A stretch of DNA of 11,802 nucleotides, from the UHGV virus genome UHGV-0166849; one strand, written 5' to 3'. Position numbers and translations under genes: made by a program. The DNA is from a virus. Positions 50-6,552 of the stretch are shown here, piece after piece; position 1 is the first letter of the stretch, and each line of letters begins with the position of its first letter. The notes beneath the pieces are model-generated. The model worked only from the letters and a program-made list of their open reading frames with translations. It was not told where the DNA came from and did not search any database.

Positions 50-2995
50 TTAGTGCTTCCCTTCTATTAAGTCTAACCTAGCTTTTATCTTATCCATTTC
101 TCTGCGCTGCCATGCTGCCTCGATATAGAATAAGAGATCAGGTCTGACCCCCCATCTAGATCCTGCTGGCGTTATTTCAACGCGCTCAATGATGTCTTCT
201 ATTACCATCACTGGATTATCATCCTCATCAACAATGATGCTCCCGTCATTATCAGTCAGCGGCATTTCCCTTTGGCCAGTAATGACGTCATCATATACTG
301 CGGGATAATCGTCATAGCAAAGAAAGGCATAGCGGCATGTTGTGCTTTCTTCTTCCATGAGTCCGTGAGAAATAAGAACATCACGAAGTTGCTGCGCGAT
401 TACACCATGATGTATCCTCGCCCCTTCTTCCCCCTTTATAGCGACAGCGTTCAGCCATTTATAAGCGATATACCTGACGTCACCCCAGGCATCCAGCAAT
501 GCTTCGTCAGGAGAGACCGGCTCTGTCTTTAATGTTCCGTCACTGGTAACCACAGGATTGGAGCCAAGATAAACTATCGAGAACCTGTTTCCCGGACCAC
601 CAAGAGCATTTACATTATCAAGATAAGGTTTAACATCTCCGTTCTCAAAAAGATGTTCGAGTGCGTTATATACCGCGCGACGTGGAGTACTGCTTCTGGA
701 ACCATGCAACGTTATCATTGCACCATCTGCTGAAGACGTTGTTTCACCGCCGCTAACGATTAATCTCTGAGCGGTAACATCATCAGACGGTACTTTCTTC
801 GCAATAATGGCGTAATTACCCTCAAGTTTGACTTCCGCGCGAACTTGTCCTGATGTACCTGCATGGACAGTCAGTGACTGGACGGCAACATCATCTGTGA
901 AATCAACGGGTACAGGAACCGTCCTCACGCCTGACGTCGACATAAAAGTAGGAAGCGTTCTGTTAGGAGTGGCTCCGTAGACAAAATCCCTTGAAACAAA
1001 TTCTTCCTGTTTAATTTTCACCCTGAAACAATACAAATCAGCCGGGTGACCATCGTGAACATAAGGATATTTTCTGTTGTTATCCCCTATGCTCCATGGG
1101 TTTAGAAAATCTTCCCCACCGAAAATGTAGTACAGCCAGTTGTCTTTGATACAAACTGAACCAACACCAACCGCAGAGTTAACTATTCCGCCCTGATAAA
1201 TCTGATCAGTAACATTAACCCACTCTACATTATCCAGACTCCACTCATTGACGTTAACTCTGGTCATAAATGTTCTTGGATAATTTCCTGCATAACGGTT
1301 ATCAGGTTCTCCTCCTTCCCACTCACCAAATGCGCGCTCACTGCCAAAAATAACCAGCTCATCGCCAACTTTGGCAAAAGGAAGGTTTGAGTGATGAACA
1401 TTATTTGGGAAGCGAAGAGAATTCCATGATGTACCTAAATCAGAGCTTCTGTGCAATGAACTACCGGGTTGAGTACTTAATGTCCCCCTGGTCGTCAGAT
1501 ACAGAATGCCATCATAATATTTTACACATGGCTCAGATGCATTCGCCTCATATTCTGCAGGTATGCGTCTGCGAACAAAGCTACCAGGAGAACCGAAAGC
1601 ATCAGAGAAATAGAGTATCCCAAGCTCGCGTGGACCAATATCACCATTATGGTAGCCAACAGCAAAACTGTTATCGCTAATCGTCGCAAAACTGTGAATC
1701 TCAGTAACAGGAGTGCTTCCGTCAACAAAAGAAGGAATAGTTCCAAGACTGGTTTTTCTCCATGGTGACGAGTGAAATGATGTGCCAAAACTCCAGTATC
1801 TACCCTCGTTATTCTGATCCACATCCTGGGTATTTTGCGTCGTAACTGTAAAGGTATTTTTATCAATAACAGTAGTCACCGTCATATTCCCGGTAACATC
1901 TGTAACACCAGAGTTTGAGAAGTTGACAAAATCACCAGCAAATAATCCGTGATCAGTAATGCGAATATAAGCGACTTGCTGATTTGCTGCTTTCGTTATA
2001 CCACCATAAACGCGAAGGCTGCGACTCATTGGGCGATCCCACAACTCTGCAACCTGCAGTTTATTTCCTCTCACGGTCCGCGTCTCAATTACAGCAAAAA
2101 GGCGATTTCTGACAACCCCCATACTCATGCAGTGATAGTTAACTGTGGGATAGTTTTCATGTAAATCTGTAAGCCATTCCGGCGTTGTCCAGGTCTTCCC
2201 GTCATCTCCTGAGCGAACCCATGCAACATGGAGGTTATTTACACCATGGCGGTCTCCAGCCATAAAAGGCGCATAGATGACATTGTCATATACAAACGTT
2301 TTATCCTGCGTCCAGGCGTTGTACCACGGTGTATCTGTAATTTTAAATAACTCTCCCTGGATAAAATCTTCAGAAGCATAAAAAAGAGGCTGACCCGGTA
2401 TTCTCTCAAATAAAAAACGAGCATTTTTAAATCGACTGACATCTGGAAGAGTTGATACTTTAAAAGTAAGCCCTCGCCCATCTATCTTTTCACCACCTGT
2501 TGCAACAGAAAGTAATTCTGATAGAGCTGATGTATCATCATGAACACCATCACCAATAGCCCCCCAACCTCTTACATCATAACTGTCTCTCCATCTTGCT
2601 ATCTGAAGTTTTGGGTATTTATTCGCTCCATCTGGGTCTTCTAATTGCCGCCGTAACTGATCAGGATCATACTTCAGCACATTAGGAAAATAAAACTGCT
2701 GTGAACCATATGCATCGTACACAGCCATAGAGTGACCTTGCACAGTTACGAACTTGGCAATCTGTCCGTTATATACCGGATATCCAGCAGCGTTAATGAT
2801 GATTGGTTGCGAAACAGGAACGTGAGAGCCGTCTTCGTTCTCCACATAAGCCTGAATCTGGTTTTCAGGATTTACCGGGTCAGTGTCAATTTTACCGATA
2901 TAAATTTTGCCATTGGCTACAGCTTTAAAAGAACGCGCCATAGTGAAGAGTTGCGAAGGCATGCTGACCACAACATTTGCGGTGATATCTGTCAT
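50..2995 (-). CDS. Tailspike protein (981 aa): P22 gp9-type head-binding N-domain + sialidase-like domain with Asp-boxes + C-terminal intramolecular chaperone-like domain; probable endo-N-acetylneuraminidase (endosialidase)
   Basis: Full-length ORF in track. N-terminus [11 protein letters not shown]...[22 protein letters not shown]...ENEDGSHV...NVLKYDPDQ closely matches my memory of the P22 tailspike head-binding domain. Two Asp-box motifs are read directly: SGDDGKTW (aa 262-269, nt ~2189-2212) and SSDLGTSW (aa 517-524, nt ~1424-1447). The C-terminal ~160 aa (motifs [25 protein letters not shown]) resemble endosialidase/tail-fibre C-terminal chaperone domains. SD GGAG lies 8 nt upstream of the ATG at 2995. 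Confidence 0.85.
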
Positions 2996-3095: not shown

Positions 3096-4019
3096 TCAGT
3101 AGTTATGTACTGAAGGAGGTAATTCTTTGTTCTTAAGTCTTATCCATGCTGAAAGGTTTGTTGGTCCGTCTGGCTCATTAATATCAACATCTCGTGTATG
3201 GTTGATTAAAACATCTCTCGCCATTCCGATAACATACGAGAACTCATAACCGCAGTCATGACATCTGCCGGAATAGTTCGATTGAATTTGTTTCAGCGCC
3301 GGATACAGTTCGCGGAATAATGCCTGTGAGCGGTTGGCATAATCCCATAGCCATACAAGGCTGTTTGCTTCTTTTGCAGAAAGCTCGTTGGTTTTCTTCT
3401 CTTGTTTGCCAATGAACTCACCTTCAAGTGGAACTCGAGCTGCAAGTGATAGTGCTTCGGTAAACTGCTCCTCACTGATTTCTTTGTACGAACATCCAAA
3501 ATGGGATTTCAGTGACGACCACATGGTGATCATCGCCTTAGCCCGTTTTTCTTTTGGCAGAGACTGACCGCGACTCATGACGAGTTGTTTAATGGCTTCC
3601 TGCTGTTCAGTGGTGATTTTACCCGGCAACGCCTTTTTAGCTTTGCGTGGGTTAACTACATAGCCTTTAGTCCAGTACTCGTAGAGCACATCGTCACACT
3701 CTTCCTGATACTGGATTACCTTGTCGCGGATTTCAGGGCGGACTTTGTTTGGCTGAATGCTTGAAAGCCAAGCCGCAAACTTACGAAAGGCAAGGCATAT
3801 CATTAACTGTTTACCGCCAGCAGAAGGTATTTCGATTTCCGAAATACCTTTGACAAATCTCTGTTTTAATTTAACAAATTGAGCAGCCCAAACCATACCC
3901 ATGCCTTCTACAACGGGTTTCATAGGAACGTAAGGTTCATTGTTAATGCTGACCAAAAAGAGATTTGTTCCGTGGAATGGAACGTTGATTGTATGTTCTG
4001 CAATTGCTACACTCGTCAT
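3096..4019 (-). CDS. ant: Antirepressor Ant (307 aa), AntA/Bro-N-like N-terminal domain
   Basis: ORF in track. Sits downstream of arc and upstream of the tailspike, as in P22 immI. N-terminal region (..VPFHGTNLFLV...PMKPVVEGMGMVWAAQ..KL) looks like phage antirepressor N-domains. SD AGGA ~8 nt upstream of the ATG at 4019. Confidence 0.75.
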   Translation of the reverse strand: MTSVAIAEHTINVPFHGTNLFLVSINNEPYVPMKPVVEGMGMVWAAQFVKLKQRFVKGISEIEIPSAGGKQLMICLAFRKFAAWLSSIQPNKVRPEIRDKVIQYQEECDDVLYEYWTKGYVVNPRKAKKALPGKITTEQQEAIKQLVMSRGQSLPKEKRAKAMITMWSSLKSHFGCSYKEISEEQFTEALSLAARVPLEGEFIGKQEKKTNELSAKEANSLVWLWDYANRSQALFRELYPALKQIQSNYSGRCHDCGYEFSYVIGMARDVLINHTRDVDINEPDGPTNLSAWIRLKNKELPPSVHNY

Positions 4020-4090
4020 GTCGTTAATTCCTATGCGTGGTTTTACGATACCGAAGCCCTGACTGTTCCCGCAGTTGGGGCTTCACTGTT
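4020..4090 (+). ncRNA. Candidate sar-like antisense RNA (~70 nt) complementary to the ant RBS and start region
   Basis: Plus-strand promoter-like hexamers inside the 5' end of ant: TTGATT (3985-3990), 17-bp spacer, TACACT (4008-4013), placing a start near 4020. Downstream is an imperfect hairpin GAAGCCC...GGGCTTC (about 4051-4081) followed by TTTTT (4085-4089). This matches the known P22 arrangement of sar RNA opposite the ant RBS. Prediction from sequence only. Confidence 0.3.
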
Positions 4091-4304
4091 TTTGTAAGTC
4101 ACTGTAGCTATAAAGCCACTGACCACTCATTTTTGATTTGATTGACTCTACTGAATCACGGCAAGGAATGATTCCACCTGACATCATTCTGATCTCCGTA
4201 AATTCACCACTCCTTATCGATTCAATGCCATCAATGTTAACTAAAGATTTACCTCTACCAAGTGCATTCTCATAGCCAATCTCATCAACCTCAATAAACT
4301 TCAT
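4083..4304 (-). CDS. Hypothetical protein (73 aa) located between arc and ant
   Basis: ORF in track. Its ATG overlaps the arc stop codon (ATGA at 4301-4304, minus strand), which suggests translational coupling. SD-like GAGGGGA upstream. No recognisable motif. As I recall P22 immI, there is no gene between arc and ant. Confidence 0.45.
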   Translation of the reverse strand: MKFIEVDEIGYENALGRGKSLVNIDGIESIRSGEFTEIRMMSGGIIPCRDSVESIKSKMSGQWLYSYSDLQKQ

Positions 4305-4459
4305 ACCGTTATCCCCTCTCTCTTCAGGCTGTCCAACACTCGCTTGTAAATCTCAGAGTTAACAGATCGCCCGTTCTCTTCAGCTACCTTGCGCACCAAA
4401 TCCAATACTTCTTTAGGCCACCGCAAATTGAACTGCGGCATTTTTCTTGCACCTTGCAT
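4301..4459 (-). CDS. arc: Arc transcriptional repressor (52 aa, ribbon-helix-helix)
   Basis: Not in the ORF track (below its size cutoff). Manual translation of the minus strand gives MQGARKMPQFNLRWPKEVLDLVRKVAEENGRSVNSEIYKRVLDSLKREGITV, near-identical in its first 40 residues to P22 Arc as I recall it (MKGMSKMPQFNLRWPREVLDLVRKVAEENGRSVNSEIYQRV...). SD AGGGGA upstream of the ATG at 4459. Confidence 0.85.
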   Translation of the reverse strand: MQGARKMPQFNLRWPKEVLDLVRKVAEENGRSVNSEIYKRVLDSLKREGITV

Positions 4460-4481
4460 GTCATCCCCTTTGTGGTATTAC

Positions 4482-4508
4482 CGTACTACTATTGAAAGCG
4501 TACTACTA
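4482..4508. repeat. Two copies of a 10-bp direct repeat CGTACTACTA (4482-4491 and 4499-4508) flanking TTGAAAG; candidate operator for Arc and/or Mnt
   Basis: Read directly from the sequence. The repeats overlap the predicted P_ant -10 and transcription start region and flank the P_mnt -35. The TAGTAG core on the opposite strand is reminiscent of the P22 arc operator half-sites. Confidence 0.4.
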
Positions 4509-4520
4509 CCGTCCTAGCAT
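4492..4520 (+). promoter_or_regulatory. Candidate P_mnt promoter, overlapping back-to-back with P_ant
   Basis: On the plus strand: -35 TTGAAA (4492-4497), 17-bp spacer, -10 TAGCAT (4515-4520). Followed by SD AAGGAG (4533-4538) and the GTG start of mnt at 4545. Confidence 0.4.
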
Positions 4521-4525
4521 GTCAA
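4497..4525 (-). promoter_or_regulatory. Candidate P_ant promoter (drives arc, orf73, ant)
   Basis: On the minus strand: perfect -35 TTGACA (4525-4520), 17-bp spacer, weak -10 TACGCT (4502-4497). Lies in the divergent arc/mnt intergenic region, as in P22. Confidence 0.45.
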
Positions 4526-4544
4526 CAAATAAAAGGAGAATGAC

Positions 4545-4787
4545 GTGGCTAGAAATGATCCGCAATTCAACGTAAGAATGCCAGATGAGATAAAACAGCA
4601 ACTTACGCATATTGCTGCAACAAATCGTCGCTCTATCAATGCTGAAATTATTGCCGCTATCCAATTGTGGATAAAGATACATAAAGAGCAGGTAATACCT
4701 TCAAGTAGTCAGCAACTGACCAAGTCAGAGAAAGAGGCTCTTGATGTGACTATTGATGTTCTACAACGTGTAAGGGATGGGAAATGA
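4545..4787 (+). CDS. mnt: Mnt repressor (80 aa, ribbon-helix-helix, Arc/Mnt family)
   Basis: ORF in track with GTG start. N-terminus MARNDPQFNVRMP...RRSINAEI matches P22 Mnt as I recall it (MARDDPHFNFRMP...GRSMNSEL). Divergent from arc, with a strong SD AAGGAG 6 nt upstream. Confidence 0.85.
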   Translation: MARNDPQFNVRMPDEIKQQLTHIAATNRRSINAEIIAAIQLWIKIHKEQVIPSSSQQLTKSEKEALDVTIDVLQRVRDGK

Positions 4788-5056
4788 AACCAACGAACAA
4801 AGAAATTTTCGAGCAAATAAAAGTACTTCCTTTCACTATTGAGCTTGCAAAGAGATATGAAGCTTATTATCCGTTTACCGAAGAGTCGATACGGATAGAG
4901 ACATATGATGAGTTTGGTCAGTGCTCTATCTGGCTTGGCTTTGAAGACCAATTTGCTATACGTGATGCTTTTGGAAATTGGAGAATGGCTACAGCTGAAG
5001 AATGTATTGATCTCAGAGGTGGCAACCTTCCAGGTTCAATGACATTAGTTAATTAA
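4784..5056 (+). CDS. Hypothetical acidic protein (90 aa), translationally coupled to mnt
   Basis: ORF in track. Its ATG overlaps the mnt stop (ATGA at 4784-4787). Net acidic (15 D+E versus 9 K+R). No recognisable motif. Confidence 0.55.
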   Translation: MKPTNKEIFEQIKVLPFTIELAKRYEAYYPFTEESIRIETYDEFGQCSIWLGFEDQFAIRDAFGNWRMATAEECIDLRGGNLPGSMTLVN

Positions 5057-5766: not shown

Positions 5767-6132
5767 TCACTCCGGCTTTTTGATATGTCGCTCGCAGAAC
5801 TCAACAAGCCTGCTCATTAAGTAGCAGTAAGTCTCATTGGCTCTTCCTGGTTCAACATCAACACCGACCCTTGAGCAGATATCGAATGCCATGTGAGCGC
5901 ACTCATGGGCAATAGTAGATAGTTTGCCATTGAACACGCCTATCACATGCAAAACACCATTCTCGCTGCTCATTGTATGAGACGCTCCGTTGGCGTCCGA
6001 GTCATGCACGTCAACGCCAAGTTTTTGATGCAGGCGTTGCCATTCTGGAAAGTCTCTACAAAACACAATTGTACCGCTCTCAAAGAGCGGAACGAGCATC
6101 TTTGGTACGTTTCCAATGTTAACTTTTTTCAT
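5767..6132 (-). CDS. Hypothetical HExxH-motif protein (121 aa); candidate mini zinc-metallopeptidase
   Basis: ORF in track starts at a TTG at 6171. I prefer the first ATG at 6132, which has SD AGGA ~5 nt upstream. Contains HECAH (aa 76-80) with Glu residues 14 and 20 aa downstream, consistent with a zincin HExxH...E arrangement. The overlapping plus-strand translation looks non-protein-like. Confidence 0.55.
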   Translation of the reverse strand: MKKVNIGNVPKMLVPLFESGTIVFCRDFPEWQRLHQKLGVDVHDSDANGASHTMSSENGVLHVIGVFNGKLSTIAHECAHMAFDICSRVGVDVEPGRANETYCYLMSRLVEFCERHIKKPE

Positions 6133-6162
6133 GGTATCCTGCTCAAAACTAAGGAGCTTGGT

Positions 6163-6552
6163 GTGAAGCAATTTCTTGCTGCTATGTTCTTATTCATATC
6201 TTTTGGGGCTACAGCAGAGTGCTGGGTCGTTGGAGATATGCGCGGAATAAGCTATTCAGAACGAAATAATTTCCATCCGGAAGAAGATGGTTTTAGTGGA
6301 ACATTCATCATTAAGACAAGCGGTGAAGATGCCAGCATCACATATTCTGGGACAGATGCGGGCGGCATGGCTTACAAAGCATTGTCTAAAAACTCCATCA
6401 TAGGAATCGGCGCGAATGGCGAAACTCAACGCGTTATCGACTCATGGGTAATACATCCTACTGGAACAGTTTTAATGTCAAAAACCATTTCTGGTTATGG
6501 GAATATGGATTCAACCAAAGCTTTTGTTGGAAAAGTAAAAAGAAAATGTTAA
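6163..6552 (+). CDS. Hypothetical secreted/periplasmic protein (129-aa precursor) with Sec signal peptide
   Basis: Start re-called to the GTG at 6163, with SD AAGGAG (6151-6156) 6 nt upstream. N-terminus MKQFLAAMFLFISFGATA|ECW has an n-h-c signal-peptide layout with an A-x-A cleavage site. The predicted mature protein has one Cys at residue 2 and one as the C-terminal residue. No lipobox. Opposite orientation to the late operon, at the position P22 uses for sieA. Confidence 0.6.
   Translation: MKQFLAAMFLFISFGATAECWVVGDMRGISYSERNNFHPEEDGFSGTFIIKTSGEDASITYSGTDAGGMAYKALSKNSIIGIGANGETQRVIDSWVIHPTGTVLMSKTISGYGNMDSTKAFVGKVKRKC

Follow-up and report, generated by a model that had tools for sequence, protein, structure and literature searches.

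orf73, a Small Gene Overlapping arc, and a Probable Cargo Slot in the immI Region of P22-like Prophages

Phage P22's immI region is a textbook circuit that has so far been treated as a fixed arc–sar–ant unit. Here we analyze orf73, a gene of 73 amino acids (aa) that lies between arc and ant in an 11,802-nucleotide (nt) stretch of viral DNA (UHGV virus genome UHGV-0166849; the window below means this whole stretch). The window belongs to a P22-like (Lederbergvirus) prophage, of which it covers the “ant moron”/immI region, and the data presented below indicate that the arc/sar junction is very probably a multi-allelic cargo slot in which orf73 is one allele. That the “ant moron” as a whole is variable is already known (PMC2629481); what this analysis adds is the exact splice geometry, a probable coupled cargo slot that is common in E. 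coli and Salmonella prophages, and a SwrD/RemA-type fold predicted for the ORF73 protein.

Organization of the locus

The minus strand of the window carries, in order, gp7, gp20 and gp16-like ejection-protein genes, arc, orf73, ant and a K1 endosialidase tailspike gene. The arc gene (4301..4459, minus strand) encodes a 52-aa protein with a Pfam Arc match (E 1.8e-26), and ant (3096..4019, minus strand) encodes a 307-aa antirepressor (P22_AR_N, E 8.6e-40; P22_AR_C, E 1.2e-28; phrog_245). An mnt-type repressor gene (4545..4787, plus strand; Pfam Arc, E 3.3e-13) is divergent from the arc operon and occupies the position of P22 mnt. Alignment with the annotated P22 promoters and operators, together with a promoter scan, placed a putative Pant/Pmnt control region at 4460..4544, with a Pant-like promoter on the minus strand (TTGACA–17 nt–TACGCT) that aligns with the mapped P22 Pant and a Pmnt-like promoter on the plus strand (4492–4520; TTGAAA–17–TAGCAT). 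The antisense RNA sar was identified at 4021..4087 on the plus strand (Rfam RF00262, E 5.8e-15; 76.6 bits, with a gathering score of 43), and a terminator scan assigned its intrinsic terminator to 4053..4094 (plus strand), consisting of a 14-bp stem (4053–4084) followed by ACTGTTTTTG. A Psar-like promoter read from the sequence (3985..4013, plus strand; TTGATT–17 nt–TACACT) lies in the first ant codons; its start is predicted near 4020/4021, and its position is equivalent to that of the annotated Psar of P22 and epsilon34. The locus therefore resembles P22 immI in having a divergent mnt, a Pant-like promoter, arc, sar, a Psar-like promoter within ant, ant and a tailspike gene in the same order.

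The gene orf73 itself (4083..4304, minus strand; 73 codons plus stop in the list of open reading frames, ORFs) begins within arc. Its ATG (4304–4302) overlaps the arc TGA (4303–4301) to give ATGA on the minus strand, exactly as described in the initial annotation of the window, which was made without database searches. A Shine–Dalgarno sequence, GAGGGG (4313..4318, minus strand), can be read inside the last arc codons, 8 nt before the ATG, and a GAGGGG/GAAGGGG purine run precedes the overlapping start in all of the cargo-bearing loci surveyed below, whatever their cargo class. The stop/start overlap and the Shine–Dalgarno sequence fit the proposed translational coupling to arc. orf73 lies in the Pant operon, and no independent orf73 promoter was found in the promoter scan.

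The initial annotation had also stated that P22 carries no gene at this position, which is correct. In P22, the 68 nt between the arc stop and the ant start consist wholly of sar, and epsilon34 is arranged alike; in both phages the arc stop is followed by 4 nt and then by the sar hairpin, whereas the window has a 222-nt gene in between. The arc–ant interval of the window measures 281 nt, made up of the 222-nt ORF (of which 4 nt are shared with arc) and a 63-nt region containing sar and the ant ribosome binding site. Ordinary P22 spacer was accordingly rejected as an explanation of the ORF.

Alignment of the window with epsilon34, P22, two phages that carry orf73 (Emek and vB_EcoP-611R6) and a 1.1 kb contig encoding a divergent homologue (L012) revealed a clean splice. 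At the upstream junction, identity resumes within the last ~35 nt of arc. The P22 C-terminus ...SFKKEGRIGA is replaced in the window by ...SLKREGITV, a form that is typical of cargo-bearing alleles when arc C-termini are tabulated by cargo class. At the downstream junction, the orf73 TGA (4085–4083) is the “TGA” of the conserved TGAAGCCCC, so that the sar terminator stem takes its first two bases from this codon. The 3′ end of sar covers the stop codon together with 2 nt at the end of the preceding sense codon, and the terminator T-tract is complementary to the codons for Q-K-Q with which orf73 ends. The sar hairpin is identical in P22, epsilon34, Emek, 611R6 and L012, and sar is complementary to the orf73–ant intercistronic region and the ant ribosome binding site; judged from the sequence, sar control of ant is intact at this locus. 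Because sar pairs only downstream of orf73, it should silence ant but not orf73. The same geometry was found in 31 of 31 orf73 loci, each with an [A/G]TGA overlap with arc, a hairpin that starts 2 nt inside the stop codon, and ant 61–63 nt downstream.

Conservation and occurrence of orf73

Length alone says little about whether orf73 is a gene, since an open frame of 73 codons is expected by chance with a probability of roughly 0.03 per frame and is not very improbable. The gene is, however, present at full length and in the same place in 31 independent loci, and it matches phrog_11805 from end to end (E 4e-53). Comparison with its 67%-identical homologue, protein P0008 from the L012 locus, gave a ratio of nonsynonymous to synonymous divergence (dN/dS) of 0.12–0.23, with dN at 0.22–0.25 and dS saturated at 1.1–1.9, and the differences are biased towards the third codon position (20, 13 and 30 at positions 1, 2 and 3). 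In L012 the orf73 frame stays open although the sequence has diverged by 29% at the nucleotide level and contains an in-frame insertion of 11 codons, whereas each of the other reading frames contains at least three stops in every orf73 homologue. A dN/dS of about 0.2 shows, at the level of codon comparison, that orf73 is under purifying selection, and orf73 is almost certainly a real gene. Coding on the opposite strand was rejected because of the stops in all other frames, and a chance ORF or spacer because of dN/dS and frame conservation.

The notion that orf73 is a non-functional ORF or arc–ant spacer could draw on the narrowness of the family, which forms just two 50%-identity clusters among 1.8 billion cluster representatives. 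Given the low dN/dS, the frame that is kept open across divergence and insertion, and the conserved synteny, we regard this notion as effectively refuted. It had been pointed out in the initial annotation that a lack of conservation or of codon-level constraint would undermine the ORF; what the comparison revealed instead is constraint and a homologue with the same synteny.

The exhaustive HMMER search of these 1.8 billion representatives identified one true distant relative, P0008 (84 aa), which has an 11-residue insertion in the β1–β2 loop and whose contig has the order mnt–arc–ORF–sar hairpin–ant, with GTGA where arc meets the ORF. A second match, P0009, was rejected as a spurious repeat protein. 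A search seeded with P0008 returned P0008 alone, a word-indexed protein search with ORF73 returned near-identical proteins only, and a scan of species-representative genomes found no orf73 locus. Among 5,426 complete E. coli genomes, orf73 DNA occurs in 51, always at full length, as a single copy and with 95–99% nucleotide identity, and it is also present in Salmonella assemblies and in 16 IMG/VR contigs. The gene is already in databases as a hypothetical: as “orf73” of the Salmonella phage Emek (AFM54340.1), as URC09203.1 of the E. coli phage vB_EcoP-611R6, as RefSeq WP_ entries and as PHROG 11805. The Emek and 611R6 copies are 97–99% identical and lie between arc and ant; gene and position are the same as in the window, and these entries carry no function, fold or slot concept. 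Literature searches found no paper describing orf73 or an arc-coupled slot.

The GC content of orf73 (37.8%) is lower than that of arc (47%) and ant (44%), a low value that is typical of a moron. Two natural variants were observed: P0001 (90 aa, from an NCBI assembly) is an orf73 allele in which loss of the stop lets the frame run on through the sar hairpin (...SDLQNSEAPTAGTVRASVSTKSD), and one surveyed IMG/VR allele carries R31W at an otherwise invariant arginine.

The arc/sar junction as a polymorphic cargo slot

The initial annotation had presented orf73 as a single extra insertion. This view did not survive a survey of 80 IMG/VR loci that encode a P22-type Arc, which were the top-ranked of 155 by similarity to the arc of the window. 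The slot is empty in 42 of the 80 (TAA, then AGT and TGAAGCCCC) and occupied by cargo in 36, in which orf73 (13 loci) is joined by an 89-aa ORF (11), a 74-aa zinc-ribbon ORF (8), and ORFs of 75, 71, 61 and 57 aa (one locus each). orf73 is thus one of at least seven unrelated small ORFs that share identical junctions. All cargos start at an offset of −4 ([A/G]TGA), and they end in ...AAAA(N)NGTGA|AGCCCC or ...GTTGA|AGCCCC in every class in which the hairpin was located.

The cargos differ widely in character. The 89-aa cargo (phrog_27312) displays, by eye, a hydrophobic N-terminal segment and a heptad-rich tail, and is probably a membrane/coiled-coil protein. The 61-aa cargo is a ClpX C4 zinc finger (PF06689, 42.6 bits against a gathering score of 27). 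Values of dN/dS for the 74- and 89-aa cargos range from 0.10 to 0.24, on few substitutions. Several zinc-ribbon cargos resemble the N-terminal zinc-binding domain of ClpX (L084, 1656–1841; L039, 1656–1880; L081, 1656–1883; L082, 1656–1871), and proteins of this kind could serve as mimics of that domain expressed at infection.

CUS-3, the named phage closest to the window, lacks orf73. As in P22, the comparison of immI regions proposed in the initial annotation showed the ORF to be absent, but CUS-3 (L034, CP000711) contains on the minus strand (3584–3990) a divergent arc (3784–3990) followed, with an ATGA overlap, by a 67-aa CxxC...CxxC ORF (3584–3787; phrog_7150). The CUS-3 record labels this stretch only as “bsq2 boundary sequence”, and arc and the 67-aa ORF are unannotated there; CUS-3 was described as apparently lacking arc by Villafane et al. 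in 2008 (PMC2629481). Cargo DNA of the CUS-3 type is found in 373 of the complete E. coli genomes, and two further cargos are found in 14 and 23. In the three top E. coli matches listed for the CUS-3-type cargo, the annotation under the match consists of the Arc gene alone. At least 461 of the 5,426 genomes carry one of the four commonest cargos, as compared with ~709 that match any part of an arc–orf73–sar query, and most E. coli immI operons therefore apparently carry an extra coupled gene. The slot is also sequence-addressable, and small phage effectors can be mined from it cheaply by means of the signature “arc 3′ end ... TGAAGCCCC”.

An autorepressor of the ribbon–helix–helix (RHH) type followed by a small gene with a 4-nt overlap is the classical layout of a type II toxin–antitoxin (TA) system, and arc and orf73 might accordingly be read as a TA-like pair of RHH antitoxin and small toxin. 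Against this, the 52-aa Arc has no C-terminal toxin-binding extension, three different Arc classes are combined with orf73, 42 of the 80 surveyed arcs have no partner, and ORF73 has no toxin family match in Pfam, NCBIfam or PADLOC; such a pair is very improbable. Across the 31 loci, orf73 is accompanied by at least three classes of Arc and by at least five types of Ant N-terminus, by which a partner specific to one Ant or one Arc was also ruled out.

Predicted fold of ORF73

ORF73 is a small acidic protein (8.3 kDa, isoelectric point 5.0). Structure prediction, one of the approaches suggested in the initial annotation, was carried out with AlphaFold2 (AF2) on a six-sequence alignment and gave a model with a predicted local distance difference test score (pLDDT) of 84.6 and a predicted template modeling score (pTM) of 0.72. 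The model comprises β-strands at residues 2–8 and 18–23, a helical turn (24–26), further strands at 27–32, 36–40 and 45–48, a helix (52–62) and a lower-confidence tail. This order of elements is that of SwrD (β1-β2-3_10-β3-β4-β5-α). SwrD, also known as FlbD, is a swarming factor of Bacillota and spirochaetes that forms a hexameric ring with a pore held by an Asn15-xxx-Leu/Ile19 motif on the 3_10 turn; in structure it comes closest to RemA, LytTR and ComK (PMC13232269, a 2026 preprint).

Sequence comparisons point in the same direction. FlbD (PF06289) is the only Pfam match for all six family members (E 0.007–0.025, short of the gathering score), and no other Pfam family, RemA (DUF370/PF04025) included, was matched at E values up to 10. 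Likewise, a profile search of PDB sequences gave chance-level matches only, with no RemA chains. When 46 genuine FlbD proteins, retrieved with a consensus probe, were aligned with ORF73 by hhalign, the register was that of the Pfam match (P 0.0067), with N23, I27, E28 and T36 of ORF73 equivalent to N15, I19, E20 and T28 of SwrD. Both hmmscan and hhalign place N23-I-D-G-I27 on SwrD N15...I19, and N23, I27, E28 and T36 are invariant in the family, P0008 included. Since the N-xxx-I pore motif by which SwrD rings are held together is retained in ORF73, the model suggests that ORF73 probably forms a ring oligomer.

Likeness to SwrD in the model extends to the order of elements, the pore motif and the retained E20 and T28, but several features set ORF73 apart. 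The SwrD P-D-T motif (Pro26-Asp27-Thr28) and Glu23 are not kept, ORF73 having E34-F35-T36 and R31, so that only the Thr is retained; invariant arginines stand in place of SwrD E23 and T31; and the C-terminal tail, which is variable and disordered in SwrD, is conserved and aromatic in ORF73. The context differs too, as orf73 sits in a phage immunity operon of enterobacteria, which are not known to have SwrD. RemA, an octameric, DNA-wrapping biofilm activator (PDB 7BM2/7BME), and LytTR have no sequence-level match to ORF73, which is acidic and lacks the DNA-binding insertion. ORF73 does not qualify as a member of either named family, SwrD/FlbD or RemA. The predicted structure and the residues in common instead make it likely to be a divergent member of the SwrD/RemA ring-fold superfamily. 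The earlier statement that ORF73 has “no recognisable motif” goes too far in view of a consistent sub-threshold FlbD/SwrD signal and a predicted RemA/SwrD-like fold.

A Foldseek search of BFVD, a collection of predicted viral structures, returned dozens of 60–90-aa phage proteins with template modeling (TM) scores of 0.6–0.8. The top match is labeled “Flagellar and swarming motility protein” (E 2.7e-3, TM 0.67/0.76), as are many others; E values run from 2.7e-3 upward, and none reaches 1e-3. When all ORFs of Enterococcus phage IME-EFm1 were searched with hidden Markov models (HMMs) of orf73 and of FlbD, both models picked out IME_053, a gene of 60 aa. This early-region gene (L033, 35802–35984, minus strand) scores E 4.6e-5 with the FlbD HMM and E 0.005 with the orf73 HMM, shares a DSVESI motif and is also a BFVD match. 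A tblastn search of phage genomes with a true FlbD protein gave one unrelated match. Small FlbD/SwrD-like proteins seem widespread in unrelated phages, among them Mycobacterium, Gordonia, crAss-like and Proteus phages. The model could provide a first structural handle on ORF73 and a link to this large set of phage “FlbD-like” proteins.

These labels, and the fact that FlbD is the sole Pfam family match, raise the question of whether ORF73 could act in a SwrD-like manner on the flagellar motor or stator of the host and so change the motility of infected cells. The “flagellar” label on phage proteins is, however, annotation by similarity only, and the peripheral P-D-T motif of SwrD is absent. 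In addition, all 31 orf73 loci lie between arc and sar/ant of P22-like prophages rather than in a fla-che operon, and a flagellar role leaves an infection-time pulse of expression unexplained. We consider such a role highly improbable.

Proposed role of ORF73

The best overall explanation, to which we give about an even chance of being correct, is that orf73 is a genuine accessory cargo gene in a dedicated immI slot and encodes an Arc-gated, trans-acting payload. The proposed regulation follows that of P22 (PMC12111858, PMC2629481 and the classical work cited there). On DNA entry, Pant would fire and orf73 would be transcribed from it, with ribosomes that finish arc reinitiating on orf73. Arc would then shut Pant off, which would limit orf73 to a short pulse right after DNA entry. 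In the lysogen, Mnt would repress Pant and orf73 would be silent; read-through of the late operon could later produce a second wave of orf73 expression, in which sar would block ant but not orf73. That the cargos are payloads acting outside immI is suggested because the slot is empty in P22 and many of its relatives, because the cargos are unrelated, and because orf73 mixes with different Arc and Ant types.

The initial annotation had offered three functions: an additional regulator, an anti-defense factor or an exclusion factor. A superinfection-exclusion or defense factor expressed from the prophage, comparable to sieA and the TA modules of the “ant moron”, would suit the surroundings, as the gene 16–tailspike region is a known moron hotspot with sieA (PMC2629481) and HicA, YafO or PIN modules lie near orf73 in several loci. 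This function nevertheless fits least of the three, because Pant is kept off by Mnt in P22 lysogens (PMC12111858) and orf73 lies inside the Pant operon, for which the scan offers no way around in the form of a separate orf73 promoter. There is also no PADLOC match, and no transmembrane segment was noticed in ORF73 by eye, although no dedicated prediction was run. An exclusion factor is accordingly improbable.

A more serious competitor is an additional nucleic-acid-binding regulator that tunes antirepressor or tailspike expression, or the lysis–lysogeny decision. ORF73 might act as a RemA/LytTR-like ring on immI or on other phage or host promoter DNA, or as an Hfq-like ring that modulates sar–ant pairing. 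Deletion of swrD alters fla-che transcript levels (PMC13232269), orf73 is part of a regulatory operon, would be expressed together with Arc and lies right against the sar terminator, and all six proteins of alignment A2 have R31, R39, K19 and K56. The three RemA arginines that bind DNA (R50, R51 and R53) are located, however, on a β3–β4 insertion (PMC8481266) that is absent from ORF73, in which this connection is formed by residues 33–35 (G-E-F), and the protein is acidic. One natural allele carries a tryptophan in place of R31. A core regulator of immI is moreover unlikely because P22 and 42 of the 80 surveyed loci work without any cargo and because the alternative cargos are structurally unrelated; zinc-ribbon and probable membrane/coiled-coil proteins cannot share a DNA-wrapping role. 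The combination of orf73 with at least three Arc classes and the difference between the operator sequence of the window and that of P22 also speak against this function. Overall we judge a regulator to be unlikely, though clearly less so than an exclusion factor.

For the Arc-gated payload, a role in counter-immunity appears plausible by analogy, somewhat short of an even chance, and an early trans-acting payload of this kind fits best of the three functions. In anti-CRISPR (acr–aca) operons (PMC6765145, PMC8633003), the early promoter is strong, an autorepressor encoded within the operon restricts expression to a pulse, and the small genes beside the conserved repressor gene are unrelated to one another and interchangeable. 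The proposed organization of the immI locus mirrors this, and the last of these features is matched here by at least seven cargo classes; it is this parallel that favors counter-immunity. The systems differ in that the repressor here is the RHH protein Arc, encoded upstream of the payload, in that the locus has a second repressor, Mnt, and an antisense RNA, and in that no payload of the immI slot is known as an anti-defense protein. A mechanism is proposed in which ORF73 would act in trans to neutralize an immunity factor of the host or of a resident prophage in the first minutes of infection, possibly through a binding surface to which the ring periphery, with R31 and R39, and the conserved aromatic tail, GQWxYSYxDL, would both contribute. 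Either a host defense system or the repressor of a resident prophage could be the target, and the latter would explain why the cargo is placed under the stringent Mnt/Arc lock of ant.

A bolder version of this proposal is tentative, and we think it unlikely to hold in full: the slot would be an Arc-gated, recombination-exchangeable site, functionally equivalent to acr/aca, from which one of many unrelated small counter-immunity proteins is released as a pulse on DNA entry, with ORF73 as a ring-forming inhibitor of SwrD/RemA fold that acts on a host defense system or on the repressor of a resident prophage, and with the widespread phage “FlbD-like” proteins as a previously unrecognized inhibitor family. 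If the payloads were indeed anti-defense or anti-repressor proteins, the slot would become a guilt-by-association marker comparable to aca genes.

Several observations weigh against this interpretation of the fold, slot and role. With regard to the fold, only two of the five AF2 models of ORF73 were confident, and the AF2 model of P0008 failed (pLDDT 40) and so provides no independent confirmation. The match of ORF73 to PF06289 (14.6 bits, E 0.025) is under the gathering score of 24.7, the hhalign comparison with FlbD gave a probability of just 5.7%, and Foldseek found nothing significant in the PDB, with no match at E < 0.6 and the highest probability (0.82) assigned to RemA. With regard to function, neither NCBIfam nor PADLOC contains a match to ORF73, and homology gives no pointer to any function. 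Most characterized relatives of the fold (RemA, LytTR, ComK) bind DNA, which favors a regulator. Coupling, the pulse and the escape from sar are inferred from P22, and in acr operons the payload precedes the repressor gene, whereas here it follows arc (PMC6765145, PMC8633003). Finally, because the surveyed loci were ranked by likeness to the arc of the window, slot occupancy in the 80-locus survey is over-estimated.

Neighbouring features

The tailspike gene (50–2995, minus strand) encodes a K1-capsule endosialidase (End_beta_propel, E 1e-232) with a P22 head-binding domain, which indicates that the prophage is CUS-3-like and probably derives from a K1 E. coli strain. The Pant/Pmnt operator region is unlike Oarc/Omnt of P22, and GTACTACTA occurs in it as a direct repeat (~4482–4490 and ~4499–4507, plus strand); the Pant −35 element TTGACA is conserved. 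From its sequence, the Arc/Mnt pair of the window probably differs from that of P22 in operator specificity.

A 90-aa ORF (4784–5056, plus strand) follows mnt and is joined to it through ATGA, its start codon overlapping the mnt TGA just as that of orf73 overlaps the arc TGA. It has no match in Pfam, PHROGs, NCBIfam or PADLOC, and the mnt side may hold a second position for cargo. Further along, ORFs of 134 aa (5767–6171, minus strand) and 201 aa (5947–6552, plus strand) overlap by ~225 nt on opposite strands, and neither has a family match, which makes the gene calls in this part of the window uncertain. In other orf73-bearing prophages, TA-type genes adjoin mnt, namely genes for DUF1902/HicA, a YafO toxin and a PIN-domain protein (L004, 2947–3483; L015, 7340–7759; L013 and L014, 4482–5030).

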